From assembly GCA_032718475.1 (NCBI GenBank), contig JAUCBJ010003673.1, positions 3,246-67,245 of the forward strand: DNA of 64,000 nucleotides, read 5' to 3'. Every line of letters starts with the position of its first letter. Within the stretch, counting starts at the first letter, position 1. Both the position numbers and the translations under genes were made by a program. Below, one piece after another: positions 16,421 through 45,129 of this stretch. The stretch is from Nemertoderma westbladi (taxonomy: Eukaryota > Animalia > Xenacoelomorpha). Under the pieces are notes generated by a model. The model was not told where the DNA came from and searched no databases. It saw only the letters and a program-made list of their open reading frames with translations.

Positions 16421-16492
16421 CGCCACCAGCGGGGATCGAACCCGCGTCTCCCGATAAACGTTCGGGTATGCTAACCGCTACACCACGGAGGC
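16421..16492 (-). ncRNA. tRNA-like Pol III unit, copy 2 (Asp/Val-like body, non-canonical anticodon loop ACGTTTA)
   Basis: GCCTCCG-TG-GTGTAGCGGTTAGCAT-A-CCCGA ACGTTTA TCGGG-AGAC-GCGGG TTCGATC CCCGC-TGGTGGC-G folds as a cloverleaf. A and B boxes intact, TTTTTT about 6 nt downstream. Lacks U33 and purine-37. Confidence 0.6.
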
Positions 16493-27782: not shown

Positions 27783-28655
27783 AATGATGCCGCTTCTGTG
27801 CTACCAGGGTCTGGTGGCAATAGCAACAGAAATATGAGCTATACTCTTCCAGGTTGGAATGAGTACGTACGACCATTCAAAGAAGATGCTATATTCTGGC
27901 ATAGTTTATGGTTATCCGCAGGAAAACCTAATGCGAGTTCGGGTAATTTATTCCACATGAGACGTACTTCTAGAGCACAGTATAAGTTTGCTGTGCGTAG
28001 ACTGACAAGAAAAGTAGACTTCATAAATAAGGATAAGTTACTAAATGCCTGTTTAACAAATTCTAGTATTAATATATTTTCAGAAATACGTAATTTAAGA
28101 GGCAATAGCTCCACTGGTTGTAGTTCTACTGCAGACGGTGCAACTGATGATATTTCTATTGCTAATGAGTTCGCTTCTATATATAGGGATTTATTTAATA
28201 GAGGGTACGACTCTGATTTATCATTTATTGAAAGTAGTATTAATGAACAAATTTCTAGTTTAAATTCATCGGTTTGTGATTTAATTACACCGGAATTAGT
28301 TACTTGTGCACTAAATAAGTTGAAATCTGCTAAGTCAGATGTCGATAATATTCTTAATTCAGACTGTTTAAAGAACGCTAACGTTGATTTAGCTGAACAT
28401 CTTTCTAACCTATTCAATGCATTTGTAGTACAGGGATATGTACCATTATTTTTATTGCGTTTTGCTCTTGTACCAATAATTAAAGATAAACTTGGGAGTA
28501 TGACATCTTCTACTAATTATAGGGCTATTGCGATTTCATCATTAATTATTAAAGTGTTTGAATGGGTTATACTAATTTCTCATGAAGATAACTTTAAATT
28601 AGATGAACTACAGTTTGGTTTCCAGCGCAACTCTAGTACCACTATGTGTAGCTGG
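27783..28655 (+). mobile_element. Non-LTR retrotransposon A, 5'-truncated ORF2, part 1 (clade unresolved)
   Basis: PGWNEYVRPFKEDAIFWHSLW, VPIIKDK, NYRAIAISS and QFGFQRNSST (early RT motifs). The reading continues at 46056 (..CSW|AAKETI). Confidence 0.9.
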
Positions 28656-28932
28656 TGTAAACACCCTAACACTCGGGTCCCCAATGCGACAAGGTGAGCT
28701 GACTGCCTTGGCAGATAAGCTTTCTCTTAGCGCAGTGGGTGTTCAAGAGTTCCGAATGCAGACTGGACAGACTGATGAGGTTCTGATTAAGGACATGGGG
28801 GGCGGTTGGCGACTCGCCCTCGCGTCAGCAGAAGATAGTGGCAATGGTGGAATTGGTCTATTGATGAATCCAACTGCACATGCAGCATTGGACAAAATAG
28901 ACCAAATCTCTAACCGCATCATCCGTTCATCA
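28656..28932 (+). mobile_element. RTE-like LINE B, 5' part (start of the APE endonuclease)
   Basis: VNTLTL...GELTAL...AVGVQEFR...GNGGIGLLM...ISNRII is an APE N-terminus pattern. It starts right after the TSD GTAGCTGG (28648-28655). Confidence 0.8.
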
Positions 28933-29944
28933 TGTTCAGTAAAACATATTCCTACTAAATGAAGAGACAGTAACAAATACACGAATCCTGCAATATCATA
29001 CTATAAAGTTTGTGAATCAAATCATAAATCCGACCTTCTCACCAAAACAGTAAACTCCAAGTAGGCGAATATATTGCAGTATCGGTCTCTTATAACCGGT
29101 GAGGCAGAAAACAGTCTACGAACGGACAAACTTCGATAAAACAAAATCCCGCGCAGCGAATCCTAAAATCAGGCTGACTCACTGACGGACTAAGGGGCTT
29201 GTATACTTTGCCGCGGTGTGATTTATATGGTTGGGCGAAAAGGACGCTAGCTAGGTGCAGAGATCTGGAGATGTCTAACTAGCGGGCAAAGTGCAGTACG
29301 GACAAAAGTTAATTTTATATATTTTGAGGTGTAAATAATTTCTAACGCGCGTGTGTTAATTCTGAACCGTCAAGATCAGTTTTGCTCCTTCATATATATA
29401 ATTACTGGGTACGGTGTGCATTTTACGAATATTCTAATTTTGTAACTTGTAGGTCCAATACTCACGAATGATAAGGCTCCTTCCCCTCTTGCGTATTTCC
29501 CCTACAAGTTCTAATGCAATGGACACCGTTGTACTACAAATAGTCACAGACGCACCTGTACTTAGCAAGAGTTAGGCGTACAGTTTGCTGCACCCTACCA
29601 ATGTGTATGCTTTGTACCGGTGTGCCTACGTCCTATCTGCGTACTAGTATCTCTGCCTGCTTCCCCCGTAGGAATATGAAGGTCTACTGCGGTTTTTTCC
29701 TGAATTAAAACAGTACAGTCCCTAGATGTAATTTTAGGCGTACAGCGTGTCACTACCTCTACCTTCGATCTGGGCGAATAACTAAGAGTGATATTGCGGG
29801 TTGTCTCCTGTCTACATTCCTTAGATGTTCCCGTTCATTGCTGTGGCCCGATGTTTAGCCAGCCATCCTGTCCCTCAGTTGAGTTCACCGTGGTGAAGCA
29901 TAGTAAAACAGATAGAAAAAGGGCAGATTAGCGATAATTCTGAC

Positions 29945-30215
29945 TTTATTACAGAAGATATACATAAACGTAACAAGAAACTAATAGATAACTAATAAAG
30001 ATAATCTAAAGCACGAATGATTGAGATATAGACTGAGGTTTAGATATAACTAATGAACGAAATCGCACCTTTTATACCAAATTTGTGCCGCAATCAATCG
30101 AGAAAATTCTCGATTGTTCTATGAGTTCTAACAGGTTTTTAAAGATAGCTATTGGTCCAACGAATATATAACTTGTACGACATTGGTTACAATCTAATAA
30201 CTACAATCTCATTGG
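29945..30215 (-). promoter_or_regulatory. LTR Pol II promoter and polyadenylation signals (also present in the 5' LTR)
   Basis: Minus strand: three CCAAT boxes ~30 bp apart (30151, 30182, 30211), TATAAAA at ~30069-30075, Inr-like TCAGT at ~30034 and AATAAA at 29945-29950. Confidence 0.65.
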
Positions 30216-30286
30216 TTAATCTTACTTCGAGCAAATGCAATTAATTTGTAGCGGTCAATTTAAATGAGTTGAAATTCTGCACGCAC

Positions 30287-30371
30287 AAAAAATAATTCGC
30301 ACCTACTAGGATTCGAACTCAATACACACTACATATAATTTCCAACGCTCTACCGACTGAGCTACTGAACC
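30287..30371 (-). promoter_or_regulatory. tRNA-derived Pol III cassette in U3 of the 3' LTR
   Basis: TAGCTCAGTCGGTAGAGCG (A box with perfect D-arm), GAGTTCGAATCC (B box) and TTTTTT terminator. Confidence 0.7.
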
Positions 30372-31142
30372 ACTTGAATAATCATCGTACAAATAGATAT
30401 AGCAAATACAAATGAGGACTTAATGTAATCTTTTAACAAAGTTAATTCGAATAAAATAAAAATTTTGAAAATCCACGGCATTTAGAGAATATAATTCTAT
30501 ACCGCTCCATGAAAACAGGATATTATCGTGCATAAAATATACGGTTTTCACCAATAATCAATCAAATTATAGAATACTTAGGGCGTACTTACATATTTAC
30601 AAATTAAATTTCAAACAATACTTCCTTTCTACATAATGATTCGATACAAAATAATTACAAATTCAAACTTTACATATTTAAAGCTTTACTAAGTAAGTAC
30701 AATATAAATCTAAATTAAATTCACCAAAATAAATCTATTTCATCTCGATATTGCGAAATTCAAATAATTACAAATACAAATAAATGAAAATCATAAGAAA
30801 GGCTCGCGAGTCTTCCATCTACTATTGCATCTCAAATATTGCACTTAGACTTAAATTCAAGTAATTACAAATACCTTGTGCCTAAATGTAGATTGCATAA
30901 GTTCGGAATAATTACAAATATGAGTCTTTCTAAGTACAAAACTTTCTAACTATAAAACCTTCTAAATACAAAATATAACACTTTACAAATGAAACTATAA
31001 GAAAGGCCCATGAGTCTTCCATTACAAACTCCGTTACAAACCGTACCGTTACAAACTTACTAAATATAAAATATATAACTCAAATAAATCACAAATTCAC
31101 AAGAAAGGCTCACGAGTCTTCCGTCCACCCTTGCCCTCCCTT

Positions 31143-34100
31143 TTATCGCTTAGTAGATCGAGCCCTGCCGCGTCCTCGAAAACTGCGCACAGGTGACTTT
31201 GCTCGCGATATGGGACTCGTGGGGCGAGTCACTGGTTTTGCTTGTACATTGGGAGACGGTGCGACCGTTTCCTCACAAATTCGTCTATTTGGTATCCCAA
31301 AACCTCGACCGATTCCTCGTGACCGATCAGTTGTCACTACAGTTGGTAAAACGTCTGGGAACGCGCGGGAAGCGGACGACGCAGACCCAAGAGTAGCTTG
31401 CGCCCCCTTTTGATCAGCTGGTGTATGTCCCGATCCTCCTGTTGGTTCTCTAGGAAGCGATACCGTATCCCGAGTAATTCGAATGGTCGGCTCAACTCCC
31501 TTGCGTTCTTCTATATTAATAGACTTCTTTAATTGTTGGCTCACTTTCTGGACCCTTATGATCCTACCCTGCCCGTCCTCCCGAGGGTGACGTGCAGACG
31601 GCGCAACCGGAGTGGCTGGTATATTTGTCGCCTCTAGGATCTCCTCTTCCTCGAATACGCTCGCTCGTATACGTTTGTGGTAAAACGCGGCTCGGTATGC
31701 CCACGCGACGGTTAACCAAGCTCCCTTATTCCGCCTTTCAGTTCGGAAACGATCAAATTCACCATACGTGATACGATTCACAACTTTCTGAAAATTCCAC
31801 GTATTTTTATTGTCCGGGTGAATCTGTAACAGATACTCGCGCACCACTCTAAATCCACTATCGTGAGGCAAAATATCGACTACCTCGATAAGTTCGTCAT
31901 ATTGGGGCATAGCGGAGATGTATCCTTCCGACATCATCGTTTGGGGATTTACCGCCCAAAATCCAAGATGCGCTCTCATCGGAAATCGTCTTCTATGTGC
32001 CGATACATGTTCGTCGGCTAAATCTTCCCACTCATCGAATAGTTTTCTCACGAGTTTTACAGATTCGTGTTCATAAGGTATGTCTCTTAGTTGGCATTCA
32101 GATGCTCGATGCCCTTTTATATTGCAATAAGTACATTGAGCCATAAATCTCCAGCAAGTATAAAAGGTATGAGACCCTTGATCTCCACACCATCCACAGA
32201 TTAGTTGAGTCGTAGTAATGTGCTTTCCACTGCACTTGGTCAAATGATGTCCAGCGACGCCACATTTACTACACATCGTATTGGCAGGGTACCACACTCG
32301 TTCGTATATAAGATCTCCAATTGGTCGAGCGCTTCCTCCCACACTATAATCATAATCATCTGGATCTATGGGTTGGTATGTTTCTGAAGGTTGTATACAA
32401 ACTACAGCATCTGTTGCTTCAAGTTGTCGAATCTCCGTCTGAGATTTCTTCGGGAGGTTCCTTTCTATCTCAAGAAGTTCCTCTAAAGGATCGTCAGTGA
32501 TCGTTGTCGTTACTTCGAAATCACCACCAAGGTGACCGATAGGCGCGCGCGTCTGCCGTGATTCATCCATAACCTCCACGATACGTTCTCCTTCATAGGG
32601 TAACAATGTAAACATAGATGGTCTTTCGATAAGAGATCCCGCACAGCGAAGATACACGTCTCGAAATATACTAAATCCTGCTCGAGTAAAGGCATTACAC
32701 TGAGCGTCGGAGTTGTAGAAGGGTTCAAGAAATCGTCTAAACACGTCGGTATGAATTCTCCCTTCCATGTAGAACATATGATCTTCTCCGAGACAAAGTG
32801 GATGTCTTTTAAGAGTCCGAGACACAATGTCGGCGATTAAGCAAACATTCACTGACGACTCTATTGCTAAATAATATTGTAAGACCGCTCTTGGAGGTGA
32901 CGTAATAGCCCAATACACGCATCCTCTCCATTTGAGCTGTGATTCAAACTCACTCATATCTGGAGTATCACCTTCTCCATAAGTCTCAATATACTTAGCT
33001 CTCTTACTTTCCTTATAATCCCAATTGAATAACAGGTAGGAAATGTAACCAGCTCCAGTCTTCTGAGTAATATTCTCACGAAAATATCCCTGTTCTATAG
33101 ACCACAAAATAAGAGGTCGAGTGTCGACGTACGGTGTCGGTAGTCGGTCATCGCTGTCCGTCATGCCGGCAAAGTCGCTAATTAAGTCCTCTCTTACTCC
33201 TGATCCAATCTTTACGACAGTTTTATCTAAAATCATATTTCTTACCATCTTCGGTAGCATTCTAGCATCGATATTACAAGCTTGGTCCATCTTCTTTACT
33301 ATGTCAGTGATGAGATGGTGTCGCTTTGTATTTGCTGGAGGTATCGGCATTCGTTTGTCGCTCCTCTGTCTACTGAAAACGTGCAAGACTCCGTCCGCCG
33401 CTCTAATTTGTATAGTCTTAGAAGTCAAACTCTGTTGATGACTGCCGCCCTCGTTATCGTAAAACATGTAACCATTTTCCTGAAACGATCTAAACGTTCT
33501 ATTCCATTCGTCCAACAATTCTTCCGAAGGTTGCCAAATCTTCTCTATGTCCTTATCATCTTCGAAACGAATAACCTTACCTCGCCAATCCATGGCAATA
33601 TCTGTATCCGACTCGAAGGTTCCAGTTCCAATCCATAAACGAATTGTTCTGGTTAAATATCCTTTCAAATTACTCGGAGCTATATCAGCACCAGCTCTAT
33701 CCAGTTCCCTAAAGTCTTGAATATGAGGTGGAACGTTATACACGACCTTTTGAGTAATATGTCTACGTAAATCATATATCTTACTCATATCGCTAAAAAC
33801 AACTGCAGGAAGGAACTCCAAGTTTGAAATGATTTCTGGATGATCCACGATGGGTATTTCGTACGTCGTATCCTGTCGGACTGGTATACTAATAGGAAAA
33901 TTGAGTGTCGTACTCAATGGTTTCGTAGTCGAAGTACTATATGGTTGCATTTCTCTTGTCCTCTCCGGGGATGCAATCTGTAGTCTCTGAATAACGTTTT
34001 GAGCAAAGTTTATGCTCTCGAAAACTTCCGGTGTCATCTCCTTAGCTGGAGTTTGATCGTGTGACGTCCAATGGTAAGGTAGGCTCGCGAGTCTTCCGCC

Positions 34101-34868
34101 CCATTCTACCATCTCACCTTTCTCGAAAGCCTTGTAGGCTCTGTATAGGCTAAGAGCTTCTTTCTTTTCGCGGGTTGACTGATTCGCCTCGTCCAGCATA
34201 AGTTCAAATGCATCGGGTTCAACAACCTTAGGTGGGTAAACGACAGTTTCTCCCGCCTTTGGTCCAGTCATAGCAAACGAATGATATGGATTTGATAAAG
34301 GATACCCTCCTTCCTGGTAGCGTAGTTGTTGATGGTTCGAACACCTCGCCAATATCGGTTCGGGATTTTCCTTATTCAAACGCATTGGAATCGCATTTCG
34401 TTGTTCGCGCATACAAGAACCGCATTGATAATAAAGTTTATAAACTGAAAATGCTTCCTTGGTTTCTCTATCATCCCCTCGAGTTCGTCTGTAAAGGTGC
34501 ATTCCATCGAATTCATCGCGTACCGCAGGCATAGGTTCGTGCGCCTTTAGGTATTGCATGGTATGATACAAACGACTAATTTCAGTATCGGGGTCTTCGC
34601 TAATGTCTCCCGTATCACACAAAGCGTCGTACGGGTAAAGTTCATTGAAGGTTTTGCACAAACTTTCGATTCTTTCATTTAATGCGTTTTGCCTTCTCTT
34701 TAATACATTCGAGTCATATTTAGTTCTCGCGAGTTTCGCAGTACTTTCTGATAATTCCTTTATACCAAATATAGTGTAGTCTTTGGCTCCAAATCTCTCG
34801 AATCGCGCTGCTGCTTCCTCTTGGATATCATATCCCCATCTCGGCTCTCCATGTATCTCCTTCTCCAT
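31143..34868 (-). CDS. Extra ORF of the LTR element: DEDDy (WRN/Mut-7/EXD-like) 3'-5' exonuclease-like domain, three CCHC-type zinc knuckles and a basic disordered tail
   Basis: Uninterrupted ORF (open from 34976, first ATG 34868). Exo I FYDNEG, TIQIRAADGVLHVF, Exo II LPKMVRNMILDKTVVKIGSGVREDL, YVDTRPL, Exo III-like QYYLAIES. Knuckles CSKCGVAGHHLTKC, CGWCGDQGSHTFYTC, CTYCNIKGHRASEC. Confidence 0.75.
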   Translation of the reverse strand: MEKEIHGEPRWGYDIQEEAAARFERFGAKDYTIFGIKELSESTAKLARTKYDSNVLKRRQNALNERIESLCKTFNELYPYDALCDTGDISEDPDTEISRLYHTMQYLKAHEPMPAVRDEFDGMHLYRRTRGDDRETKEAFSVYKLYYQCGSCMREQRNAIPMRLNKENPEPILARCSNHQQLRYQEGGYPLSNPYHSFAMTGPKAGETVVYPPKVVEPDAFELMLDEANQSTREKKEALSLYRAYKAFEKGEMVEWGGRLASLPYHWTSHDQTPAKEMTPEVFESINFAQNVIQRLQIASPERTREMQPYSTSTTKPLSTTLNFPISIPVRQDTTYEIPIVDHPEIISNLEFLPAVVFSDMSKIYDLRRHITQKVVYNVPPHIQDFRELDRAGADIAPSNLKGYLTRTIRLWIGTGTFESDTDIAMDWRGKVIRFEDDKDIEKIWQPSEELLDEWNRTFRSFQENGYMFYDNEGGSHQQSLTSKTIQIRAADGVLHVFSRQRSDKRMPIPPANTKRHHLITDIVKKMDQACNIDARMLPKMVRNMILDKTVVKIGSGVREDLISDFAGMTDSDDRLPTPYVDTRPLILWSIEQGYFRENITQKTGAGYISYLLFNWDYKESKRAKYIETYGEGDTPDMSEFESQLKWRGCVYWAITSPPRAVLQYYLAIESSVNVCLIADIVSRTLKRHPLCLGEDHMFYMEGRIHTDVFRRFLEPFYNSDAQCNAFTRAGFSIFRDVYLRCAGSLIERPSMFTLLPYEGERIVEVMDESRQTRAPIGHLGGDFEVTTTITDDPLEELLEIERNLPKKSQTEIRQLEATDAVVCIQPSETYQPIDPDDYDYSVGGSARPIGDLIYERVWYPANTMCSKCGVAGHHLTKCSGKHITTTQLICGWCGDQGSHTFYTCWRFMAQCTYCNIKGHRASECQLRDIPYEHESVKLVRKLFDEWEDLADEHVSAHRRRFPMRAHLGFWAVNPQTMMSEGYISAMPQYDELIEVVDILPHDSGFRVVREYLLQIHPDNKNTWNFQKVVNRITYGEFDRFRTERRNKGAWLTVAWAYRAAFYHKRIRASVFEEEEILEATNIPATPVAPSARHPREDGQGRIIRVQKVSQQLKKSINIEERKGVEPTIRITRDTVSLPREPTGGSGHTPADQKGAQATLGSASSASRAFPDVLPTVVTTDRSRGIGRGFGIPNRRICEETVAPSPNVQAKPVTRPTSPISRAKSPVRSFRGRGRARSTKR

Positions 34869-35529
34869 AATTAGAGGTGTAGTTACATAATCATTACTAC
34901 TAGAGGGAATACAACAGAGTTTGTAGTTAGTTGTGAGGAGACGTGAGAGTTTTCGTCTGCCCTTTTGGCTCGACAACGCTCTAACCTCCTACCCATAGCC
35001 TAAGATCTAGGGTTTCTTTAATGACACGCTGCTTCTTATCTAAAATTTTTTGCCGAAATAAAAACGAATTTAGGCTAAACTGGCTGTGAGTCTAAAATAC
35101 TCACCTTTTGATCCCAAACTATTATCAGAAAATAAGCAGTCAAGAATTAGTAATAAATATAGGGAAGTCTATTTTGACGTAACTTATTGAAACAAGACCG
35201 TGTAAAATTTAATTAAAATTTTTAAGAAAGGCTCGCAAGTCTTCCTCTCTTGTTTCTCTAATTTTAAGTTCCACCCCACTGTACCCTGAAATCTATTCAC
35301 TGGAGAAAATTTTAAAAATTTTTCAAATCCAAATGGATTGTCTAAAATTTCGAAAATGTCTCAATATTGTGAGTTCCAAGTAGAATTCCATTTCTTATAC
35401 CTACAAATCCCGCTCCTATGTGACACATAAGGGTACTACCCTCAATGTTCACATATAAAGACAATGGAATTCTACCGCTGTCCTTACTACAGTGTACAGG
35501 TACGTGGAAATCTATTTGTAAACTCCTAA

Positions 35530-38202
35530 TTATTTACTAACATTTGTTGGAGATTTGTAGTCTCCAGACTCGTTTCGAGTCTCTTCAAGAAGTACGAGAC
35601 GTTGAGTCGGTCTGTCTACTGTACGACCGTCAATTGTCCGTACCGTCACAGTTCTTGTTACTCCATCCATAGATGGATGTGTGTCTAAAATTACACCTGT
35701 TATCCAGAAGCGTCTTTTTAGATTCACTTCTGCTAACAGCACGTGATCTCCCGGCTTTAATGCGCGGGTGTTATTGTACCATGTTGTTCTGGCAGAAATA
35801 GAGGGCAAATAATGGTTTTGCCATATTTCCCAGAATTTGTTAGCTAGTAGTTGCGTGATTTTCCACGCTTTTCTACCGTAGCTATCGCCTTCCATTGGAA
35901 AAGAAATAGGCGTCAAAGTAGTCGGTGCCTGCATAAGCAGGTGTGCCGGTGTCAAAGCAAACTGGGATTGTTTGTCATCGGGTACTAATACTATTGGTCT
36001 AGTATTTAGTATTGCCTCGATTTCAACAAATAGTGTTGTCAGTTGGTCGTCTGTCAATATGTGGTTTACTGGAATGACCTTTGCCATGGCTGTTTTTATA
36101 GATCTAATCAATCTCTCCCAGACTCCGCCTCTCCATGGACTATCTGGAGGATTAAACTTCCAAACAATCTTGTAAGGACGTAGTTCGTTTGAGATTTGAT
36201 CATGATCTAATTTCTTAAAGGCTCTAGCAATTTCATTTCGGGCACCAACAAAGTTTGTCCCTTGGTCTGAGTACAAGCATTTCACTAGTCCGCGTCTAGC
36301 GATAAATCGCCGCAATGCTAGTATAAACGCGTTGGTGGAAAGATCCATCACACGTTCAATATGAACTGCCCTACTGGACATACATGTGAAAATCAGTCCC
36401 CAGCGTTTTACTAGTATACGTCCACGTTTCGTATGTATGGGACCAAAGCAATCAATTCCAGTCTCTGTAAAAGGTGGTCTGAATGCTTGAAGTCGTGCTT
36501 GTGGAAGTTCACTCATTTCTTGAGTACCTATTCTAGAGTGTACCTTTTTACAAATAATACACGTACGTGTCACTGAACTTAACGCTTTACTGGGTCTAAT
36601 TAATACAAATCTTGTACGTAAGTAGGAAAGACAGTGGTGTCTTCCAGCGTGTTTCAGATGTAAATGTGCGTCCAGTATCATTGCATGTTGTAATTCGTGA
36701 TGCTGCGGTATTATTATTGGGTATCTAAAGTTTGTGTTAAAGTCAATGTTTTGAAGCCGAGATTTATGACAAATTAAGCCATTATAAATTATCGGACTCC
36801 AACTCAATATTGGTGACGACTTGATTGGTTGACCTTGATTTATAGATGTGAATTCGCGTGCGAAATATCGCAGTTGGTAATGGCGAATTAATTTAATTTC
36901 ACACCTGTCAATCTCAGTCAATGTAAGTCGACGTGTAAAGTCGCGTTTGCCTTTAACGTATTGTACAAAACGTACAATCCACGCTAATTTTCGGCAAGCG
37001 TTTGTCCAAGAGTCTGTTAGGTTTACAATACGGTCGACGTAAGTATTTGTGACGTCATCAGGTAAGTCAATGGAGAATTTGGAAGGTTTTGATTTACTAG
37101 AAGGGCCCACGGGTCCGCCGGTAGGTATTCCCTTGTTGACTGTTAATCCGTCCGGGTCTACAAGTAATTTGTCCTTCTTTGTTTTCTTACCTTGATTGTC
37201 AGTACTTTGTAAGTCGATCGTTAATGGTGGTTTGAACTCTATGGGGTCACTGGGTTTCGGTAAACTTATTTTTCTGCCGATATTAATCCCAGGTCTCACC
37301 ATAGGTTGCAAGTTTGGTATGTCTCTTGAGCGCAAAGTAACACCTGTATTTACATTAGCGTAGGTACTACCCACATCTGTAATACATGAGGTTTCACTGT
37401 GCTTATGGTTACTCAAGTGTGTCAAATTTGGTAGTTTGTCAATACAAGGCCGCTCCAATAGAGAAACTGCGGCTTTACTATTTGTCAATATGTTACTAGT
37501 GTCTGGTAGAACATTTTGTGACATGTCTGGTAGAATGTTTCGCGGAACATCCGGCGAAATATCTAGTGACGTGTCTGGCAAAACGTCTGGTTGACCGTCT
37601 AGTAACGCGTCTGGCGATACGTCTGGTAACGTGTCTGGTTGTTTGTCAATAGAAGGCCGCTCCAATAGAGAAACTGCGGCTTTACTATTTGTCAATATGT
37701 TACTAGTGTCTGGTAGAACATTTTGTGACGTGTCTGGTAGAATGTTTCGCGGAACATCCGGCGAAATATCTAGTGACGTGTCTGGCAAAACGTCTGGTTG
37801 ACCGTCTAGTAACGCGTCTGGCGATACGTCTGGTAACGTGTCTGGTTGTTTGTCAATAGAAGGCCGCTCCAATAGAGAAACTGCGGCTTTACTATATGTC
37901 AATAGGTTACTAGTGTCTGGTAGAACATTTTGTGACGTGTCTGGTAGAATGTTTCGCGGAACATCCGGCGAAATATCTAGTGACGTGTCTTGCAAAACGT
38001 CTGGTTGACCGTCTAGTAACGCGTCTGGTTGACCATCTAGCGATATGTCTGGTGTAGAAAGGCTCGCAAGTCTTCCGGCGTTATCATCTGTCATCGATGG
38101 AATCTCTGGCTGACTCGCCTTCTCCCCAAGTTCTAAACTCACCTGGTGGATTAGCTGCTCCTTGTGACTTATCGTATTAGCTACACACGTCGTACTTGTC
38201 AT
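35530..38202 (-). CDS. Pol segment: repeat linker plus integrase (H2C2, DDE core, DUF5641-like); no RT or RNase H
   Basis: HLHLKHAG...CIIC, GIDCFGP, SDQGTNFVG, GGVWERLI, EAILNTRP and DGVTRTVTVRT. No YxDD or RNase H motif upstream. Confidence 0.9.
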   Translation of the reverse strand: MTSTTCVANTISHKEQLIHQVSLELGEKASQPEIPSMTDDNAGRLASLSTPDISLDGQPDALLDGQPDVLQDTSLDISPDVPRNILPDTSQNVLPDTSNLLTYSKAAVSLLERPSIDKQPDTLPDVSPDALLDGQPDVLPDTSLDISPDVPRNILPDTSQNVLPDTSNILTNSKAAVSLLERPSIDKQPDTLPDVSPDALLDGQPDVLPDTSLDISPDVPRNILPDMSQNVLPDTSNILTNSKAAVSLLERPCIDKLPNLTHLSNHKHSETSCITDVGSTYANVNTGVTLRSRDIPNLQPMVRPGINIGRKISLPKPSDPIEFKPPLTIDLQSTDNQGKKTKKDKLLVDPDGLTVNKGIPTGGPVGPSSKSKPSKFSIDLPDDVTNTYVDRIVNLTDSWTNACRKLAWIVRFVQYVKGKRDFTRRLTLTEIDRCEIKLIRHYQLRYFAREFTSINQGQPIKSSPILSWSPIIYNGLICHKSRLQNIDFNTNFRYPIIIPQHHELQHAMILDAHLHLKHAGRHHCLSYLRTRFVLIRPSKALSSVTRTCIICKKVHSRIGTQEMSELPQARLQAFRPPFTETGIDCFGPIHTKRGRILVKRWGLIFTCMSSRAVHIERVMDLSTNAFILALRRFIARRGLVKCLYSDQGTNFVGARNEIARAFKKLDHDQISNELRPYKIVWKFNPPDSPWRGGVWERLIRSIKTAMAKVIPVNHILTDDQLTTLFVEIEAILNTRPIVLVPDDKQSQFALTPAHLLMQAPTTLTPISFPMEGDSYGRKAWKITQLLANKFWEIWQNHYLPSISARTTWYNNTRALKPGDHVLLAEVNLKRRFWITGVILDTHPSMDGVTRTVTVRTIDGRTVDRPTQRLVLLEETRNESGDYKSPTNVSK
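37437..38050 (-). repeat. In-frame 207-bp (69-aa) tandem repeat, three copies, built from 12-bp LPDx subrepeats
   Basis: AAGGCCGCTCCAATAGAGAAAC at 37446, 37653 and 37860. Confidence 0.93.
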
Positions 38203-38262
38203 GTTGTCGTGTTTTATCGACGCTTGTGTAGTATAGTCTCGGTCGTGTGAAAGGGAATGAGT

Positions 38263-39603
38263 CTAAGTTGTAGTTAATAAACTACATGTACTTTGTATAT
38301 CGTCTTCCTCGTCACTTATATCCAGTGTGCGCACAGGCGCTCGAGTATACCACCCTATCGGCGTTCTACAGGCGTATGTGTTTCCCGCTACGACTGCCGA
38401 TGGTCTGGTTTCCCACACTTGATGTAGGTTGAATTGATCTGTCCCGATCAGCATTGCTACCGACCTATAGTTGACAGGACATTCAGGTACACCAAGGTGT
38501 CTGAAGTACTTACGGTCCTCCAAGGATTGTTCTGGGACAGGACCTAGTAGGTTACTAAAGTCCTTTGTGGCCGGAAAGGTTAAATCTTTAAAGGGTAACA
38601 AAGACCTCTCCTTTTCGCTATGTTGCGATTTCGGAAGAAGAGTGTCTAAGTTCAACTTAACTCGTGTCACTGGTATTGCACGTTGTCCATGCATACTACT
38701 TACGGTGTAACTGACGTTCTTACCTTGTCGGAGATCCGTCACAACATCAGCTACTTTCTCATCCACGTAGCTATGAGATGAGGCTGAATCCAGGATAGCG
38801 TAGATCCTTTTGCTCCCTTTGGTGCCAGTAATCTTGACAGGAATTATACTAAACCCCTTTAGTTGATCAGGCGTCAGAAGCGCAATCGATGGTTGTTCGT
38901 CTCCAGTATCAAAGTAAACGTCTTCGTCTTCCGACTCTTCATCCGACGATCCTGATTGTTCCGAGAAGCAATCTCTAATGTATGTCACGAAAGTCGGTGT
39001 TGTTTTTGACTCTCGACCCTTATATGCTGTGTTGCATCTTGCTGCCGCTTCCGGGTGTTCCCTGGTGAAGCGTTTGGTCGGCGTATGACTGTCTGTGTGG
39101 AGCAAACCGTCATGGTTGCGTCCACAGGAAGGACAGATGTCTGTATTTGGGCAGTCTTTACGGACATGTCCATGTAGCGTACACCGCCAACAAGAGTCCA
39201 ATGGCCGTATTTGCAGTCGTTGTTCCTCCGAGTTCAATTCGCGGAATAGTCGACAACCTCTCAGTTTATGGCTAGTATGTCGTTTACCTAGCCGTTCGCA
39301 ATATTGGCAACTGCTAAAGTCTGTGCTCAGTTGCTGTCGGATCTGTTTGGTTCCAATTGGTGCGGATACCTTATTACTGTCCGAAAATTGTCGGGTGTCG
39401 GTCGATGTTGCGTAGGTAACCGTCTTTGTGGATGTCATCGGTGGTTTTTGTCTGTTGGAGGATGGTAAGGTTATTCCTTCTGCCACAATATGTTGGTCCG
39501 TGTAGTTCGAACGCGTCTCGACTACTGCCTCTCTGGATATCATTAAGTAGACGTCTTCCAACTTCAAGAATCCGCCCCTCTCTTCTCGCTGATATTCTAT
39601 CTT
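38263..39603 (-). CDS. Gag nucleocapsid knuckles plus aspartic protease (in frame with the flanking ORFs)
   Basis: CQYC..H..C, CWRCTLHGHVRKDC and CPSCGRNHDGLLH (BEL pattern); AILDSASSHS active site, MLIGTD and RTPIGW. Separated from each neighbour by one in-frame stop. Confidence 0.88.
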   Translation of the reverse strand, partial: KIEYQREERGGFLKLEDVYLMISREAVVETRSNYTDQHIVAEGITLPSSNRQKPPMTSTKTVTYATSTDTRQFSDSNKVSAPIGTKQIRQQLSTDFSSCQYCERLGKRHTSHKLRGCRLFRELNSEEQRLQIRPLDSCWRCTLHGHVRKDCPNTDICPSCGRNHDGLLHTDSHTPTKRFTREHPEAAARCNTAYKGRESKTTPTFVTYIRDCFSEQSGSSDEESEDEDVYFDTGDEQPSIALLTPDQLKGFSIIPVKITGTKGSKRIYAILDSASSHSYVDEKVADVVTDLRQGKNVSYTVSSMHGQRAIPVTRVKLNLDTLLPKSQHSEKERSLLPFKDLTFPATKDFSNLLGPVPEQSLEDRKYFRHLGVPECPVNYRSVAMLIGTDQFNLHQVWETRPSAVVAGNTYACRTPIGWYTRAPVRTLDISDEEDDIQSTCSLLTTT

Positions 39604-42399
39604 TCACCACTCCCGACGAAGTCGATGGTGTAATCTTCCTATTATTTTCAATAGGACTGTCGGAGTGTTCGCGTAGTCAAGTTGTCCAATCGAGCGTAGT
39701 GTAGTAATGGCGTTTTTAATCTCGTCAGCTAATTTCAGTAAGTCAACGGGTTTTGTTATAGCCCCCCCCTTACAGAGTTCTTCTATCACTGACTTAGCCA
39801 TGCTTACAGTGCCTCCGTAAATCGAAGTTAAGCGATCGTACGCTAGTTCGAAGGCGTCTGGTACACCGACAAAGGTCTCCGCTAGACGTTTCGGTTCTCC
39901 CGTCAGCGTTTGTAGCAGGTAGTTGAATTTCTCCCTCGATGTAAAGGCGCACGTTGCTATTTGGGTTTCGATGTAGTCCACAAAGGTGTGCCAATGTTTC
40001 GAGTTACCGGAAAACTTAGGTGGTTGTTGCACCGGTAATCCTTGTCTGGCTGCGAATTTCGCTATCTCCTCGGCCACGTTCAAAGTTTCGCGTCCTTGGT
40101 TGGCAATCGAGTTGATGTTCTCTCGTCTTGGCGCTTTTCCTTGATACGAGGTGTTTCTCGAGGGTTGTTTTCTTTGCTGCTTCGGGTGTCTAGAGTGTTC
40201 GAACTCGTTACCTCGCGAACTATCAGTTTGAGTTTCTTCTAAACGTTCTTCTATCTGGGCCAACTTGTCTACAACTGGTCGCATTAGATCGGCGAATTGT
40301 TGCGTACTAATCGCGTCTGTTGGTTGTAACGCTTTCTGTGTTGGTGTATTGTGTGGAGGATTATCGATAAAGGAGTTATCTGAACGCTCACGTTTATATT
40401 CGTCGGCCGCTCCTGTTCTAAATACCTCGCGTTCCGGGTAATCCGACTCGCTTGAAGTACTACTGTCACCTGGATACGGTGGTCGACGTGCTCGCGTCCG
40501 TTGTGTCGTTCGAATTCTAACATTCCGTTTCGGAACATCATCCACTGTTCTCCGTTGTTTGGTAGGCTCACAAGTCTTCCTCGAAGTTGTAGATTGCGAT
40601 GTAAACTGATTAAACGGTGGTCGAATGACAGCGTTTGAATCTAAAGGCCTTGTAGGCCTAAACGTCATTGGGTACGTGTAATGCATAACGGGTTTTGGTG
40701 TCGAAGGTGGACTCACCTGTTTTGTCGTCAGTGGTGCAGGTCCGGTCAACAAACTACTACGATCTGTAATCGGTGGGTTACTTACCTTGACTTTCAGAAT
40801 GGGCGACGACGTTGCTCTTGGCGGTGTAAACTTGTCCGGAATAACAAACCTGTGTTCCGTCGCACCATGGATAGGAGAAATATTACTACTACCAGCAATC
40901 GAAACAGGTTCCTTAGTCGTAATCGGTGCAAACATAGGAGTTACTTGAGGGAATCTTTGACATAAGTCTTTTACCAATTGTCTTTCTCGCCCAGGTGCCC
41001 CTACACTTCCTTCCTTCATTCGTTCCTGAATTTGGCGGTGCCTTACCTCTATCTGGTCCAAATCATGTCCGTCACGAGATCTCATCGATCGATCGCAGGC
41101 TTGTAGATCCAGATCTTCCTTCGCGTTGGCTAATTCTCTCGCCTTCTTCTCGAGTTCGAAATGAAGTTTAACTTCTTTCTCGCGTTGTTCCGTCTGTTGT
41201 TGTTGCGCCTCGAACTCCGCTTGTCGTATAGCTGATTGAGCCTTTATTTGCCGTTTTTTCATCTCAGCTCTTACTTCCGAAATACGCTTGTGTTCTTCCA
41301 ACGCTGCTGCTCGTCGCTCTAAATCAGCCGCTGCCGCTTGTCGTTCCAACTCAGCTGCTGCCGCTTGTTGCACTAACTCAGCTGCCGCTGTTCGCTGTGC
41401 TATTTCTAGCTCCAACCTTTCCATCTCACCCGCTTCCAACTCGGCTTGTTCTTGCAGCTGAGAGATTCTCGCAACATTTGCAACGCGTAGTTTTTCTTCT
41501 TCTACCGCCGCTTGTGCCGTCAACAGTTGAGTTTGTTCCTCAATTTCCCGTTGTTGTCTATAGTGCTGTTGTTGCTGTCTGGAAATTTCTGACGTCACTA
41601 TACTTACCTCGCCAATTTCGCTGCGAATACTCACTAACGATTGGTCCAGTATTCCCGGTGCCGATTCGATTTGTACGGGTGAAGTTTCCCTCGTATATTC
41701 CGGCACGGTTTCCAAATCGCCGACGTCTTCGCCGCACATACGTAAGTGGTCCGTCAGATGTTTCAATTGTCCATCCAGTCGGTACAGTTCCTGTTCTTCC
41801 TCGGGCTGCAATAATTCGTCCGAAACTGACTCACCTAACAACTGGTCCGCTTGTTCCTGTTGTATCTGCCTAATCGTCGACTTAAACTGAATCAGTTTCT
41901 CTCTAGCGATCATTAGTTTCTCGAGGATTCTAAGTTGAGTATCCACGTCCTGTCTCTGTCTAGCTAGATCTTGTAGACCAATTAGATTATCTACGGACTT
42001 ATGTACTCTACTTTGTACTCTAACCTGGAGGGTGTAGAACTCAAACCGAGACATCGGAGCGGTTAACTCGTCTAATATGCGTTGGCCTTCCCCAATACTC
42101 CTGGTAATATGCGCCATGTAGCCTCCGACGCTTCTAACCACACTCTCCTGGCTTCCTACTGAACTTACCATGTCCGTTTCCCTGTATCTAGGTTGCGGAA
42201 CAGTTAGAAAGTCCTCGGTCCTGCCGTCGCCTCGTACTACGGCATCCGGTACTCCCGTTGGATGTACTGGTGACGCACACGGTGTAGGTTCGGTAGGCTC
42301 GCGAGTCTTCCCCTGTAGTTCTTCCGCTGCTGACTTATCTCCGTCGCATGAGTCATAGTCGGTAGGTGTATTCTTCGTATAGTCTTGTTTGTCACTCAT
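39604..42399 (-). CDS. Gag (long coiled-coil N-terminus plus DUF1759-like capsid region)
   Basis: 931-aa ORF containing PPKFSGNSKHWHTFVDYIE..EKFNYLLQTLTGEPKRL..AYDRLTSIYG. Confidence 0.88.
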   Translation of the reverse strand: MSDKQDYTKNTPTDYDSCDGDKSAAEELQGKTREPTEPTPCASPVHPTGVPDAVVRGDGRTEDFLTVPQPRYRETDMVSSVGSQESVVRSVGGYMAHITRSIGEGQRILDELTAPMSRFEFYTLQVRVQSRVHKSVDNLIGLQDLARQRQDVDTQLRILEKLMIAREKLIQFKSTIRQIQQEQADQLLGESVSDELLQPEEEQELYRLDGQLKHLTDHLRMCGEDVGDLETVPEYTRETSPVQIESAPGILDQSLVSIRSEIGEVSIVTSEISRQQQQHYRQQREIEEQTQLLTAQAAVEEEKLRVANVARISQLQEQAELEAGEMERLELEIAQRTAAAELVQQAAAAELERQAAAADLERRAAALEEHKRISEVRAEMKKRQIKAQSAIRQAEFEAQQQQTEQREKEVKLHFELEKKARELANAKEDLDLQACDRSMRSRDGHDLDQIEVRHRQIQERMKEGSVGAPGRERQLVKDLCQRFPQVTPMFAPITTKEPVSIAGSSNISPIHGATEHRFVIPDKFTPPRATSSPILKVKVSNPPITDRSSLLTGPAPLTTKQVSPPSTPKPVMHYTYPMTFRPTRPLDSNAVIRPPFNQFTSQSTTSRKTCEPTKQRRTVDDVPKRNVRIRTTQRTRARRPPYPGDSSTSSESDYPEREVFRTGAADEYKRERSDNSFIDNPPHNTPTQKALQPTDAISTQQFADLMRPVVDKLAQIEERLEETQTDSSRGNEFEHSRHPKQQRKQPSRNTSYQGKAPRRENINSIANQGRETLNVAEEIAKFAARQGLPVQQPPKFSGNSKHWHTFVDYIETQIATCAFTSREKFNYLLQTLTGEPKRLAETFVGVPDAFELAYDRLTSIYGGTVSMAKSVIEELCKGGAITKPVDLLKLADEIKNAITTLRSIGQLDYANTPTVLLKIIGRLHHRLRREW

Positions 42400-42485
42400 T
42401 TCGGTAGTTGTAAGTCAAGTAAAATGTGAGTGTCAAAGTATCAAATTTACCGTATTTATATTTAAACGGTACTAATTACAGTCAT

Positions 42486-42620
42486 ATAAAATTAGCCTAC
42501 CGGCCGATTTTATAGCAGATGGATAAAATTAGCCTAAGCGGCCAATTTTACAGCAAATAAATGTCACGGAATAAGTATATAATAAAATTAGCCTAGCAGC
42601 CAATTTTATAACAAATAAAT
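42486..42620 (-). repeat. Three ~30-bp direct repeats in the element leader
   Basis: TAAAATTAGCCTAxCxGCCxATTTTAxAxCAxAT at ~42487, 42524 and 42583. Confidence 0.7.
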
Positions 42621-43188
42621 CGGATAACGATATGCGTTATCAAAAGGTAAATTAAATACAATAATACGGACTAATTCAGCAATGAACAAAGAAATCGTAC
42701 AGAATGCATAAATACTTGAGACAGTGGAACCCACAATAATTTTAACTAATACGGTAATGCCTAACTTATTTATGCAACTTTTCAAACTCACCCACTCCAA
42801 TGATTCTCCAGAAAAACAGATTCCCAGATACAAACCGGACGTGAACCTTTCCGTTTCCAGCGTTGCGGACGAAGTGCGATTTTCCCAACCAAAGTTGTTG
42901 GGTTATCTATCTCCCAAACTTGCTAAACACGGTCTTGCTCTCGTTACAGTCTAGAAATGAGTTCTGAATCCTGAAAAAACAAAAGAGTTAGGTTTTACTT
43001 TTACGAAAATTTTGTACCGGTACAATATGGTATTTAAACCCTTTTAAACACCGGTATTCAATTCCAAAATATTTTACACGCGGTTCAAATCAAATTTTAT
43101 TTCAAAAAATTAGCACTTAGCTAATCAAATATAAATTTTACCTCAAAATACAAAAATTTTCAAATAACTTTAGTCCTACCGAACCGTA

Positions 43189-45129
43189 GTTCAGTAAAAC
43201 ATATTCCTACTAAATGAAGAGACAGTAACAAATACACGAATCCTGCAATATCATACTATAAAGTTTGTGAATCAAATCATAAATCCGACCTTCTCACCAA
43301 AACAGTAAACTCCAAGTAGGCGAATATATTGCAGTATCGGTCTCTTATAACCGGTGAGGCAGAAAACAGTCTACGAATGGACAAACTTCGATAAAACAAA
43401 ATCCCGCGCAGCGAATCCTAAAATCAGGCTGACTCACTGACGGACTAAGGGGCTCGTATACTTTGCCGCGGTGTGATTTATATGGTTGGGCGAAAAGGAC
43501 GCTAGCTAGGTGCAGAGATCTGGAGATGTCTAACTAGCGGGCAAAGTGCAGTACGGACAAAAGTTAATTTTATATATTTTGAGGTGTAAATAATTTCTAA
43601 CGTGCGTGTGTTAATTCTGAACCATCAAGATCAGTTTTGCTCCTTGATATATATAATTACTGGGTACGGTGTGCATTTTACGAATATTCTAATTTTGTAA
43701 CTTGTAGGTCCAATACTCACGAATGATAAGGCTCCTTCCCCTCTTGCGTATTTCCAGGACTCAAATTCAGGCATAAGATTAATGCTACGCCCAGAATTCG
43801 GCAATTTTAATTTACCAGGTCCCTAATACTAAGAAGAAATGTGTTAGTTTACTACAGTAGGCGTACGGTTACTAATAGCTAGCCTGGCGTCCTATCTAGA
43901 ATTTTGGTTACCTAGGTGGGCTTGGTAACTTCCTATCAGGATGTCGGCGGGGACACGGTAGATGTTAGTATCCCTAAACAGCCTCAATTTATTTGCGCCT
44001 AGTCGTAAACTGCCCTACCGCCTGAACGGTACAATCCTAATTCAGGTGAAACACAGTAACCCTCCTGGCCTACAAGTTATAATGCAATGGACACCGTTGT
44101 ACTACAAATAGTCACAGACGCACCTGCACTTAGCAAGAGTTAGGCGTACAGTTTGCTGCACCCTACCAATGTGTATGCTTTGTACCGGTGTGCCTATGTC
44201 CTATCTGCGTACTAGTATCTCTGCCTGCTCTCCCCCGTAGGAATATGAAGGTCTACTGCGGTTTTTTCCTGAATTAAAACAGTACAGTCCCTAGATGTAA
44301 TTTTAGGCGTACAGCGTGTCACTACCTCTACCTTCGATCTTTGGTCTTATACTTAGGTAGCAAGGCATCGAACGCTGTCTAACCTTTCAGGCGATGGGCG
44401 AATAACTAAGAGTGATATTGCGGGTTGTCTCCTGTCTACATTCCTTAGATGTTCCCGTTCATTGCTGTGGCCCGATGTTTAGCCAGCCATCCTGTCCCTC
44501 AGTTGAGTTCACCGTGGTGAAGCATAGTAAAACAGATAGAAAAAGGGCAGATTAGCGATAATTCTGACTTTATTAAAGAAGATATACATAAACGTAACAA
44601 GAAACTAATAGATAACTAATAAAGATAATCTAAAGCACGAATGATTGAGATATAGACTGAGGTTTAGATATGTATAACTAATGAACGAAATCGCACCTTT
44701 TATACCAAATTTGTGCCGCAATCAATCGAGAAAATTCTCGATTGTTCTATGAGTTCTAACAGGTTTTTAAAGATAGCTATTGGTCCAACGAATATATAAC
44801 TTGTACGACATTGGTTACAATCTAATAACTACAATCTCATTGGTTAATCTTACTTCGAGCAAATGCAATTAATTTGTAGCGGTCAATTTAAATGAGTTGA
44901 AATTCTGCACGCACAAAAAATAATTCGCACCTACTAGGATTCGAACTCAATACACACTACATATAATTTCCAACGCTCTACCGACTGAGCTACTGGACCA
45001 CTTGAATAATCATCGTACAAATAGATATAGCAAATACAAATGAGGACTTAATGTAATCTTTTAACAAAGTTAATTCGAATAAAATAAAAATTTTGAAAAT
45101 CCACGGCATTTAGAGAATATAATTCTATA
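43189..45129 (-). repeat. 5' LTR (~1940 bp)
   Basis: Direct repeat of 28933-30501, with additional segments at ~43757-44069 and ~44340-44393. Confidence 0.93.
44915..44999 (-). promoter_or_regulatory. tRNA-derived Pol III cassette in U3 of the 5' LTR
   Basis: Same A box, B box and T6 as 30287-30371. Confidence 0.7.

Follow-up and report, generated by a model that had tools for sequence, protein, structure and literature searches.

What is a single LTR element doing with eight near-identical copies of a 20-nt, near-self-complementary motif, placed in coding and untranslated sequence alike? We asked this of a 64,000-nt stretch of Nemertoderma westbladi DNA (the window). Judging from its sequence, the host of the motif is an abundant BEL/Pao-derived LTR element of 16.2 kb, a non-autonomous derivative with the following parts:

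43189..45129, minus strand: 5' LTR, 1941 nt, with a TATA-like box at 44704 and AATAAA at 44574.
39604..42414, minus strand: gag ORF (ATG at 42399, DUF1759), ending at an in-frame stop at 39604-39606.
38263..39603, minus strand: nucleocapsid knuckles and protease region in the gag frame, with an in-frame stop at 38263-38265.
35530..38262, minus strand: linker, then integrase ORF, in the gag frame and without RT/RNase H (integrase at 35575-37050, DUF5641).
31143..34868, minus strand: extra ORF of 1241 aa, counted from its first in-frame ATG, with a DEDDy-exonuclease-like domain and CCHC knuckles.
28934..30501, minus strand: 3' LTR, 1568 nt, with AATAAA at 29950 and a putative poly(A) site near 29930.

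Gag, protease, and integrase follow the BEL/Pao order (DUF1759, Integrase_H2C2, and DUF5641 are all matched), the best integrase matches are BEL/Pao polyproteins at 33-40% identity, and positions 252-858 and 1483-1978 of the BEL/Pao profile are matched. Profile positions 859-1482, covering RT and RNase H, are unmatched in six frames of 28000-46000, and 0 of 10 full-length queries match in that region. The linker contains a 207-nt unit repeated 2.9 times (37429-38028), and the element carries further tandem repeats. Its two LTRs differ by 10 substitutions in 1568 aligned columns, with gaps of 4, 55, 1, and 313 nt. A purine-rich 7-nt run precedes the 3' LTR, the sequence shared by the LTRs starts TA and ends AC, and the element is flanked by two different repeats. 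We saw no partner encoding RT, and the element must presumably rely on the RT of such a partner. The LTRs, Gag DUF1759, protease, DUF5641 integrase, and a third gene at the place of env are as in other BEL/Pao elements (PMC8742986), from which this one differs in having no RT/RNase H, a third gene that is exonuclease-like rather than env, and the eight-copy motif. It is also large, at 16.2 kb with LTRs of 1.6-1.9 kb, against 4.2-10 kb and 0.2-1.2 kb in Belpaoviridae (PMC8742986).

The motif copies, numbered in element order, are:

42292..42311, minus strand: copy 1, centre CGCG, ACC end, 88 nt past the gag ATG.
40561..40580, minus strand: copy 2, centre TGTG, ACC end, in gag but clear of the conserved domains.
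38057..38076, minus strand: copy 3, centre TGCG, TTC end, in the linker at the usual place of RT/RNase H.
35226..35245, minus strand: copy 4, centre TGCG, TTC end, in the spacer.
34078..34097, minus strand: copy 5, centre CGCG, ACC end, in the extra ORF, 5' of the nuclease-like domain.
31103..31122, minus strand: copy 6, centre CGTG, TTC end, 20 nt past the extra-ORF stop.
31001..31020, minus strand: copy 7, centre CATG with G at position 13, TTC end, in the 3'UTR.
30797..30816, minus strand: copy 8, centre CGCG, TTC end, in the 3'UTR.
30920..30930, minus strand: possible decayed 5' half copy, seen by eye within the roughly 100-nt spacing of the 3'UTR.

A first-pass annotation of this DNA had reported eight copies on one strand and none in the LTRs or outside the element, and both statements were borne out in the window. 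The 17-nt core has exactly eight matches, all with 0 mismatches and all on the minus strand, which is the sense strand of the element; 0 of 100 shuffles held any core match at up to 2 mismatches (chance expectation 0). Scanning with the 20-nt pattern at up to 3 mismatches gave 19 rows. Besides the 8 copies, 7 are self-matches on the opposite strand, and of the remaining 4, 2 lie within the element and 2 beyond it. Given that chance yields a mean of 1.42 and at most 5 such extra rows, we recognize no ninth copy and regard the LTRs as lacking the motif; neither scan found it there or in the rest of the window, which is the scope within which we call it family-specific. The copies occupy three types of context, with 4/8 in ORFs, and are fairly evenly spaced (largest gap 3077 nt, P 0.056). 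They come after both stop codons and before U-rich tracts.

Translation confirmed that different frames are used: the motif reads KTREPT and KTCEPT in gag, and GRLASL where it falls in the linker or the extra ORF. The three Gag-Pol copies lie outside every profile-matched segment, and the motif peptide is absent from the 124 proteins compared, which contain 2 loose 5-residue matches to it. At the nucleotide level, 14/20 positions are invariant, including those of a constant A.C mismatch. The five dispersed copies agree at 16-20 of 20 nt, the likeness stopping sharply at the edges and hardly reaching into the flanks (only 2 pairings of their flanks with those of any copy reach z>2), so the invariance points to constraint on the sequence and not on pairing alone. 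The arms are fixed and the 4-nt centre is variable, taking 5 of the 8 minimum changes (P about 0.01). Decay of methylated CpG was considered as the origin of this variation and ruled out because CpG observed/expected is 1.0-1.4 in 7/8 element regions, with no CpG depletion. The changes are also strand-asymmetric (C9T twice, C11T twice, G12A never): 7/7 transitions preserve the i:21-i pair on the sense strand against 2/7 on the antisense strand. Since 12 of the 20 possible transitions are sense-compatible, the chance of this is 0.6^7 = 0.03, a post hoc figure calculated by hand, and the change at position 18 does disrupt a sense pair. The claim that the motif is conserved as nucleotide rather than peptide is thus supported by its fixed arms, variable centre, wobble-compatible changes, and freedom from CpG decay. 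Most likely, as far as sequence comparison can tell, it is a cis element specific to this family, working at the nucleotide level and on the sense RNA.

Could the copies instead be neutral, arising when template switching duplicated a short piece and conversion then kept the duplicates similar? For the 3'UTR this has some appeal. Copies 6-8 have flanks in common and lie 102 and 204 nt apart, as expected from a local duplication of about 100 nt; they are therefore non-independent, leaving approximately six independent placements. Other tandem repeats occur in the element, and some sibling contigs are without copy 7 (joints 30919/30920-31097 and 30921-31080). Joints near copy 8 (30777/30782-30878 and 30843-30756) were examined as a further gain or loss and rejected as mapping artefacts because they track a 22-nt repeat (30756-30777/30853-30874). 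Sibling sequences also fail to support constraint: of 441 nt only 4 sites vary, none of them among the 60 motif nucleotides, an outcome with a chance probability of 0.56, and this variation is too sparse to reveal constraint on the motif. Pieces at about 82% identity also occur. In run X1, siblings carry 182 C>T and 170 G>A changes, favoring neither strand. Contigs of relatives end abruptly at the 5' edge of the motif, and one preserves the 20-nt distance from stop to motif. Against a neutral origin stand the near-identity and sharp edges of the five dispersed copies with almost nothing shared in their flanks, their presence in open frames in two phases, and changes that are non-random by place and kind. 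We consider this explanation decidedly unlikely.

We next considered how the motif folds. The stem-loop drawn in the first-pass annotation fits the sense strand of the five TTC copies only, and its account of copy 7, in which U-A becomes U.G and pairs on the sense strand only, was correct; the three ACC copies do not follow the drawing, as they add an A.A mismatch. The idea of a free-standing stable stem-loop is unsupported. Isolated sense hairpins have predicted energies of only -2.0 kcal/mol in 5 copies and -0.4 kcal/mol in the other 3, and with 100 nt of context on either side the hairpin exceeds a probability of 0.5 in 1/8 copies (copy 4 alone). Antisense hairpins are more stable in 8/8 copies (-2.8 to -4.9 kcal/mol) because the constant A.C becomes G.U on that strand, and exceed 0.5 in context in 3/8. 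The 3'UTR as a whole has no excess of structure over 40 shuffles (-81.4 versus -83.5 +/- 4.8).

Pairing between copies looks more favorable. The central 8 nt self-pair on the sense strand in 8/8 copies if G.U is allowed, and the sense self-duplex reaches -17.0 or lower in 7/8, a level attained by 2.7% of the 12,667 20-mers of the element; copy 2 reaches only -8.2. Two sense copies are predicted to form a symmetric 20-bp duplex with two A.C mismatches and an 8-bp core, and copies 6 and 7 cross-pair with a probability of 0.27 in the 3'UTR ensemble. In these models, copy-to-copy pairing is predicted to be the energetically better paired state, much more stable than two separate hairpins. The antisense self-duplex is more stable than the sense one in 5/8 copies; by the energy of the dimer minus two monomers, the sense strand is favored in 5/8 and equal in 3/8. 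Among the 16 most self-complementary element sites listed, 15 are not motif copies.

An inverted repeat that is imperfect and tolerates change at its centre, together with a weak RNA hairpin, is also what one might expect of a double-stranded DNA site for a dimeric protein, with two 8-bp half sites and a 4-bp spacer, the protein being a VANC-like anti-silencing or chromatin factor or a host transcription factor. The fairly even spacing of the copies would suit such a site. The motifs bound by VANC of Arabidopsis VANDAL elements are likewise family-specific, multi-copy, in the same orientation, and spread partly by tandem repeats, and go with an extra protein (PMC5735166). They differ in being 9-bp, non-palindromic DNA motifs, mainly non-coding, of a plant DNA transposon, whereas ours is 20 nt and near-palindromic. 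DNA recognition does not predict strand-asymmetric changes of which 7/7 are sense-compatible, the LTRs, the usual home of DNA signals, lack the motif, and the spare domains of the element are of RNA type (knuckles, RNase D-like). A DNA site is in our view quite unlikely.

Which RNAs carry the motif depends on splicing, for which the basis is a single contig of run X4. No listed run is recorded as RNA, a blank from which we draw no conclusion. The X4 contig defines two introns:

34900..42791, minus strand: GT-AG intron from leader to extra ORF, containing copies 1-4.
42971..44383, minus strand: GT-AG leader intron, removing the LTR end and PBS position.

In this one run, then, the extra ORF is spliced like env, and 4/8 copies, those downstream of the acceptor at 34900, remain in its mRNA. 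The leader contains other structures:

42488..42607, minus strand: three other repeated hairpins (42488-42511, 42525-42549, and 42584-42607), a candidate Psi between splice donor and gag ATG.
43173..43200, minus strand: 12-bp hairpin of LTR end and PBS, loop UACG closed by C-G, with copy 1 as alternative partner.

Retroviral-type Psi is confined to unspliced RNA, and the motif is not a classical Psi. The packaging role proposed in the first-pass annotation is weakened as regards selectivity, because 4/8 copies stay in the spliced mRNA and the leader triple hairpin is far stronger than the motif hairpin.

The protein encoded by the extra ORF suggests another function. The ORF has no direct Pfam match for the DEDDy domain; the assignment runs via a homolog, P0122 (library E 3.9e-5; Atlas fold and feature matches to PF01612), and the D-x-E, D, and Y..E residues of ExoI, II, and III align. 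Its AlphaFold model has a pLDDT of 31, and a PDB sequence search matched only the knuckles, which are nucleocapsid-like. HMMER returned 4 matches, P0122 and P0123 with the same architecture and 2 knuckle-only, and word-index searches returned none. Such a DEDDy-plus-knuckle protein, spliced like an accessory gene product, might coat the RNA at the motif for export, stabilization, or shielding from trimming 3'-5' by its own or host enzymes, as a Rev- or CERV-like factor that stabilizes a weak hairpin with no copy-to-copy role. The presence of copies in spliced and unspliced RNA alike, their position relative to stop codons and U-rich tracts, and the loop variation would all fit, and in C. elegans Cer1, CERV is a spliced product required for genomic RNA export (PMC10309623). 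CERV too is an accessory protein from a spliced LTR-element mRNA, and its RNA target, as far as described there, is no known 20-mer (PMC10309623). However, siblings deleted for the nuclease domain and copy 5 (joints 32584-34709 and 32696-34729) persist, and a near-perfect palindrome would be superfluous. We regard this explanation as a serious candidate, if an unlikely one.

Copy 1 raises a further alternative, that the motif pairs with a fixed RNA partner, be it some small RNA or the PBS region of the element itself. Copy 1 would then switch the PBS hairpin or yield, after trimming by the exonuclease, a primer end encoded by the element. There is no TGG after the LTR end and no tRNA-CCA-type PBS was seen at this position. 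For the 21 nt past the 5' LTR, the best partner is copy 1 with its extension (-23.0 kcal/mol; mean -8.7, sd 2.9), 42287-42297 (the end of copy 1 plus 5 nt) being the exact complement of 43175-43185. An 11-nt complement arises for 3/400 random 21-mers, and about 10 long-range 11-nt complements occur in the element by chance. The pairing has probabilities of 0.97, 0.97, and 0.70 in three leader windows, but two longer windows favor folding of the PBS on the LTR end (P 0.95), leaving copy 1 with 0.04 and 0.01. A fixed partner could tolerate the C>U and A>G changes, yet it accounts well for one copy, partly for the three ACC copies, and not for the five TTC copies; the tRNA-like RNA of the LTR pairs poorly with motif or PBS. 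No Rfam family covers the motif: Rfam 15 at E<=1 gave, for 28000-46000, 2 weak bacterial sRNA matches below the gathering score and none on the copies. The motif was also compared by eye with a tRNA T-arm, a histone stem-loop, SECIS, and ribozymes, and these readings were rejected for want of Rfam support. A fixed partner seems very improbable.

Weighing this evidence, we tentatively propose, with a probability of roughly 0.4, that the motif copies are repeated sequence-specific sites on the sense RNA, read by a knuckle protein of the element and able to pair copy to copy in particle assembly. The element supplies two knuckle-bearing products, and the knuckles of the Gag nucleocapsid or of the extra ORF would bind the fixed arms. 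The knuckle protein may then chaperone an exchange from hairpin to duplex within one RNA, and the same exchange could join one genomic RNA to another or to the RNA of a partner that encodes RT. Copy-to-copy pairing would help collect the RNA in particles. Discrimination in favor of unspliced RNA would rest with the leader triple hairpin, a separate structure, to which the motif would add avidity. Among the observations that sit awkwardly with docking and pairing, variation falls in the centre, which a dimer contact should conserve, and antisense hairpins are more stable in 8/8 copies and antisense self-duplexes in 5/8, with copy 2 weak. Extending the proposal to a two-partner BEL/Pao system is a long shot. 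Here the RT-less element, providing Gag, protease, integrase, and accessory nuclease, would dimerize or be co-packaged with a motif-bearing, RT-encoding partner RNA through eight wobble-tolerant palindromes, and copy 1 might also act as the switch for, or supply the primer to, a PBS without a tRNA-CCA signature.

Parts of this proposal have precedents. Retroviral dimer-initiation palindromes (HIV DIS) are short self-complementary sites in the 5' leader that pair intermolecularly; here only 1/8 copies is near the leader and the rest are dispersed. Single-stranded RNA viruses and the HBV pregenome (MS2 and STNV being other instances) carry dispersed packaging signals, many sequence-related sites along the packaged RNA, with a conserved loop on variable, covarying stems. 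Our motif shares the many related sites, whereas its arms are fixed and its centre varies. Ty1 RNA dimerizes via self-complementary PAL sequences (PMC6844567) and scattered sites are thought to contribute to Ty packaging (PMC4974528). PAL1 and PAL2 resemble the motif as self-complementary RNA able to pair intermolecularly with Gag as chaperone, and differ in being one or two short 5' leader sites rather than a 20-mer distributed over 11.5 kb (PMC6844567; PMC4974528). In the bdelloid LTR elements Juno and Vesta, ORF3, which encodes a DEDDy exonuclease of RNase D type, likewise takes the place of env; these elements are gypsy-like and keep RT, while our element is BEL/Pao with a spliced ORF of 1241 aa and several knuckles, and the accessible part of that report makes no mention of a repeated RNA motif (PMC5408684).

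Viral contigs contained 0 motif matches, and neither the extra ORF nor the integrase had a relative there. Metagenome matches (37 loci with 1 exact match each, no BEL/Pao proteins encoded) were dismissed as chance level. Five motif strings had 0 matches in the 2.0 million characters covered of the PMC3118150 supplements, whose element FASTA archive alone is 18.6 MB. We found no report of such a motif, or of a BEL/Pao family that lacks RT and carries an exonuclease ORF, in the literature searched, Repbase and subscription journals being outside its scope.

To our knowledge, how LTR retrotransposon RNA is chosen, dimerized, and packaged is known almost solely from yeast Ty elements. For BEL/Pao, the ICTV profile calls replication "poorly understood" (PMC8742986). 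A 20-nt motif at eight places makes a compact and well-delimited substrate for assays of binding, structure probing, and dimerization, and can serve as a sequence tag for finding the RT helper. If the copies do pair together, they would represent a distributed form of dimer linkage.

The 17-nt core of the motif has eight exact matches in the window, all on the minus strand, as in the first-pass annotation, which had placed eight copies on one strand, in non-coding sites and two reading phases. In gag, two copies encode KT.EPT; another two, in a different phase, encode GRLASL, and the remaining four are non-coding. Dinucleotide shuffles gave no match to the core at up to 2 mismatches (0/100). 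A relaxed 20-nt search added opposite-strand self-matches and four three-mismatch matches, at chance level, and neither search found a copy in the LTRs or in the ~48 kb of the window beyond the element, so that the reported absence of outside copies holds within the window. Fourteen of the 20 positions are invariant (variable: 9, 10, 11, 13, 18 and 19). The motif analysis rests on one element copy, laid out as follows:

43189-45129, minus strand, 5' LTR
28934-30501, minus strand, 3' LTR (10 substitutions in 1568 columns and four gaps between the LTRs)
39604-39606, in-frame stop interrupting the gag-protease-integrase frame
38263-38265, second such stop
42292-42311, 40561-40580, 38057-38076, 35226-35245, 34078-34097, 31103-31122, 31001-31020 and 30797-30816, minus strand, motif copies 1-8

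The few LTR differences indicate a young insertion. A single reading frame encodes gag (DUF1759), knuckles plus protease, and integrase (Integrase_H2C2, DUF5641); the integrase relatives are BEL/Pao polyproteins (33-40% identity in the best 120 of 680), whose layout is described in PMC8742986, PMC3118150 and PMC4580426. Positions 252-858 and 1483-1978 of the BEL/Pao polyprotein profile are matched in the element, positions 859-1482 (RT, RNase H) have no match there, and their place is taken by a linker of 1.2 kb that carries a 207-nt tandem repeat. A contig from sequencing run X4 (36841-37245) spans the integrase-linker boundary. Repeat-filled non-autonomous LTR elements are a precedent (PMC3286476). 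In run X1, summed contig depth, which is not a copy number, is 9,000-87,000 across internal bins including the linker and 21-45 for rare diverged pieces, which suggests that the family is abundant and its RT-less form frequent. The family was not found in metagenome or viral contigs.

The element ends (28928-28934, 45129-45130) show neither TG..CA nor a clear target-site duplication, and the two flanks fall in different repeats; fragments of LINE-like ORFs lie at 27759-28697 and 45097-46005. At 39143-40103 an X4 contig differs at 169/961 nt, its neighbours by 2-5%, and depth falls; this copy may be mosaic there. A tRNA-like stretch at 44915-45001 (minus strand), matched in the 3' LTR near 30290-30372, stands at the start of each LTR and has by eye an A-box/B-box look and a T6 run; ARAGORN and Rfam made no call on it, and it is a possible Pol III unit. 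Other features of the window are:

11651-15679, 20664-21725, 49326-50297, 51391-53130 and 58934-59983, host-type animal genes (RhoGEF plus WD40, lamin, kinase, others), each one long intronless ORF, which we read as an intron-poor genome or retrocopies
9-4500, 6500-9200, 24189-24724 and 25000-27700, satellite arrays with units of 32, 16, 174 and 31 nt
16035-16768, tandem 312-nt unit with tRNA-Asn genes (two by ARAGORN, plus a third partial copy)
19337-20408, nested long inverted repeat, arms 243 nt at 91%, MITE or foldback-like

The three 3'UTR copies are spaced at 102 and 204 nt and resemble one another downstream (two pairs at z 3.3-3.4). Among all 28 copy pairs, four downstream and one upstream pair reach z 2, so the motif was placed about six times independently, and the dispersed copies have little in common outside the 20-mer. 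Neutral duplication, which the 3'UTR flanks recall and the dispersed copies do not, we consider improbable. In contigs from sibling copies in four runs, 30740-31180 holds four variable sites (at least 3%) and its 60 motif nucleotides none (chance 0.56), too few to inform on constraint. Among the loose ends listed (24 of 92), contigs align to the 5' edge of the motif (30816, 31022) and then diverge. At one X3 joint, 30823-31143 (depth 38, with 13 letters between), the extra-ORF stop and the motif stay 20 nt apart, with a different sequence between them. These single contigs hint that motif position is conserved among relatives; some other contigs lack copy 7.

The stable sense-RNA hairpin originally proposed finds no backing in thermodynamics, since the isolated sense hairpin reaches -2.0 (five copies) or -0.4 kcal/mol (three copies), against -2.8 to -4.9 kcal/mol for the antisense, and in context forms in 1/8 copies, against 3/8 for the antisense. 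The pattern of motif changes favours sense-strand pairing. A minimum tree of the six variants has 8 changes, five of them in the 4-nt centre (P 0.010). All seven transitions preserve the pair of position i with 21-i on the sense strand, and two of seven do so on the antisense; 12 of 20 possible transitions preserve the sense pair, which puts 7/7 at about 0.03 (post hoc). The single transversion disrupts a sense pair. The element is without CpG depletion, and sibling sequence changes are symmetric between strands. Pair 10:11, possible only between two copies, passed from G-C through G.U to A-U, a single event. Sense copies are predicted to pair two by two into a 20-bp duplex that contains two A.C mismatches, and self-pairing is -17.0 or better in seven of eight, a level in the top 2.7% of 12,667 20-mers; copy 2 reaches just -8.2. 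Antisense self-duplexes are the more stable for 5/8 copies, and many other sites are equally self-complementary. In the folded 3'UTR, copy 6 pairs with copy 7 at P 0.27. From the fixed arms, including a mismatch closable by one transition, we infer that a protein reads the sequence specifically, besides pairing. We give a probability of roughly 0.4 to repeated sense-RNA sites that are read by a knuckle protein of the element and can pair copy-to-copy in particle assembly. A double-stranded DNA site of the VANC type is unlikely on the sense pattern of the transitions; the same orientation of copies is no proof of RNA action, according to PMC5735166.

Two X4 joints, 42791-34900 and 44383-42971, have GT-AG ends on the element sense strand, in one contig each; both are missing from X1, X3 and X5. 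The splice sites of both introns resemble the consensus, and an X4 depth peak adjoins the AATAAA of the 3' LTR. The tool guessed X4 to be DNA; we infer that it is RNA, with the extra ORF (31143-34868) expressed from an mRNA spliced in the manner of env. The second intron takes the LTR end and PBS position out of spliced RNA. The spliced extra-ORF mRNA retains copies 5-8 and loses copies 1-4; a classical Psi is confined to unspliced RNA, so the motif is ill suited to selective packaging. A better Psi candidate is a set of three other hairpins, near-identical and stable, at 42488-42607 (minus strand), between splice donor and gag ATG (folding z -3.57, equalled by 0/200 shuffles; 3 matches to the repeated hairpin, 0 expected). 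At 42598 almost all sibling depth shows a base converting a U.G pair to C-G. Less probably, the motif would serve the spliced accessory protein as a response element, by analogy with CERV (PMC10309623), with copies in both the intron and the spliced message.

The 21 nt following the 5' LTR contain no TGG. Within the internal region they pair best with the end of copy 1 extended by 5 nt (11 exact pairs, -23.0 kcal/mol). The predicted probability of this pairing is 0.70-0.97 across three leader windows and 0.01-0.04 across two longer windows, in which the PBS bases fold onto the LTR end (12-bp hairpin, UACG loop). The hairpin of PBS position and LTR end lies at 43173-43200 (minus strand), with a C(UACG)G loop. 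Three complements of the PBS segment, each at least 8 nt long, cluster no more than 110 nt from the gag start:

42287-42299, minus strand, PBS-complementary word
42359-42366, minus strand, PBS-complementary word
42400-42407, minus strand, PBS-complementary word

A U5:AUG switch occurs in retroviral leaders, and Tf1 and Cer7 self-prime; the PBS-copy 1 link resembles both, post hoc and in one copy only. Fixed-partner or primer pairing as the role of the motif, which this one link would suit, strikes us as very doubtful.

The extra-ORF knuckles match retroviral nucleocapsids. Two distant relatives of the extra ORF, P0122 and P0123, have the same layout. Atlas assigned the N-half of P0122 to a PF01612-type 3'-5' exonuclease from features and structure, and acidic motif residues align; the putative nuclease identity of the extra ORF comes indirectly, by way of P0122. 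Rotifer LTR elements are known to carry DEDDy ORF3s (PMC5408684, PMC6431247). Sibling contigs in X1, X3 and X4 have deletions of 2.0-2.1 kb in 32584-34729, by which motif copy 5 is lost along with the nuclease-like domain.

Literature searches found neither this motif nor this layout reported. Precedents exist in Ty1 dimerisation via PAL sequences (PMC6844567) and in the scattered packaging sites of Ty (PMC4974528). In the reading we favour, the repeated sense-RNA sites would be read by a knuckle protein of the element and could pair copy-to-copy during particle assembly.
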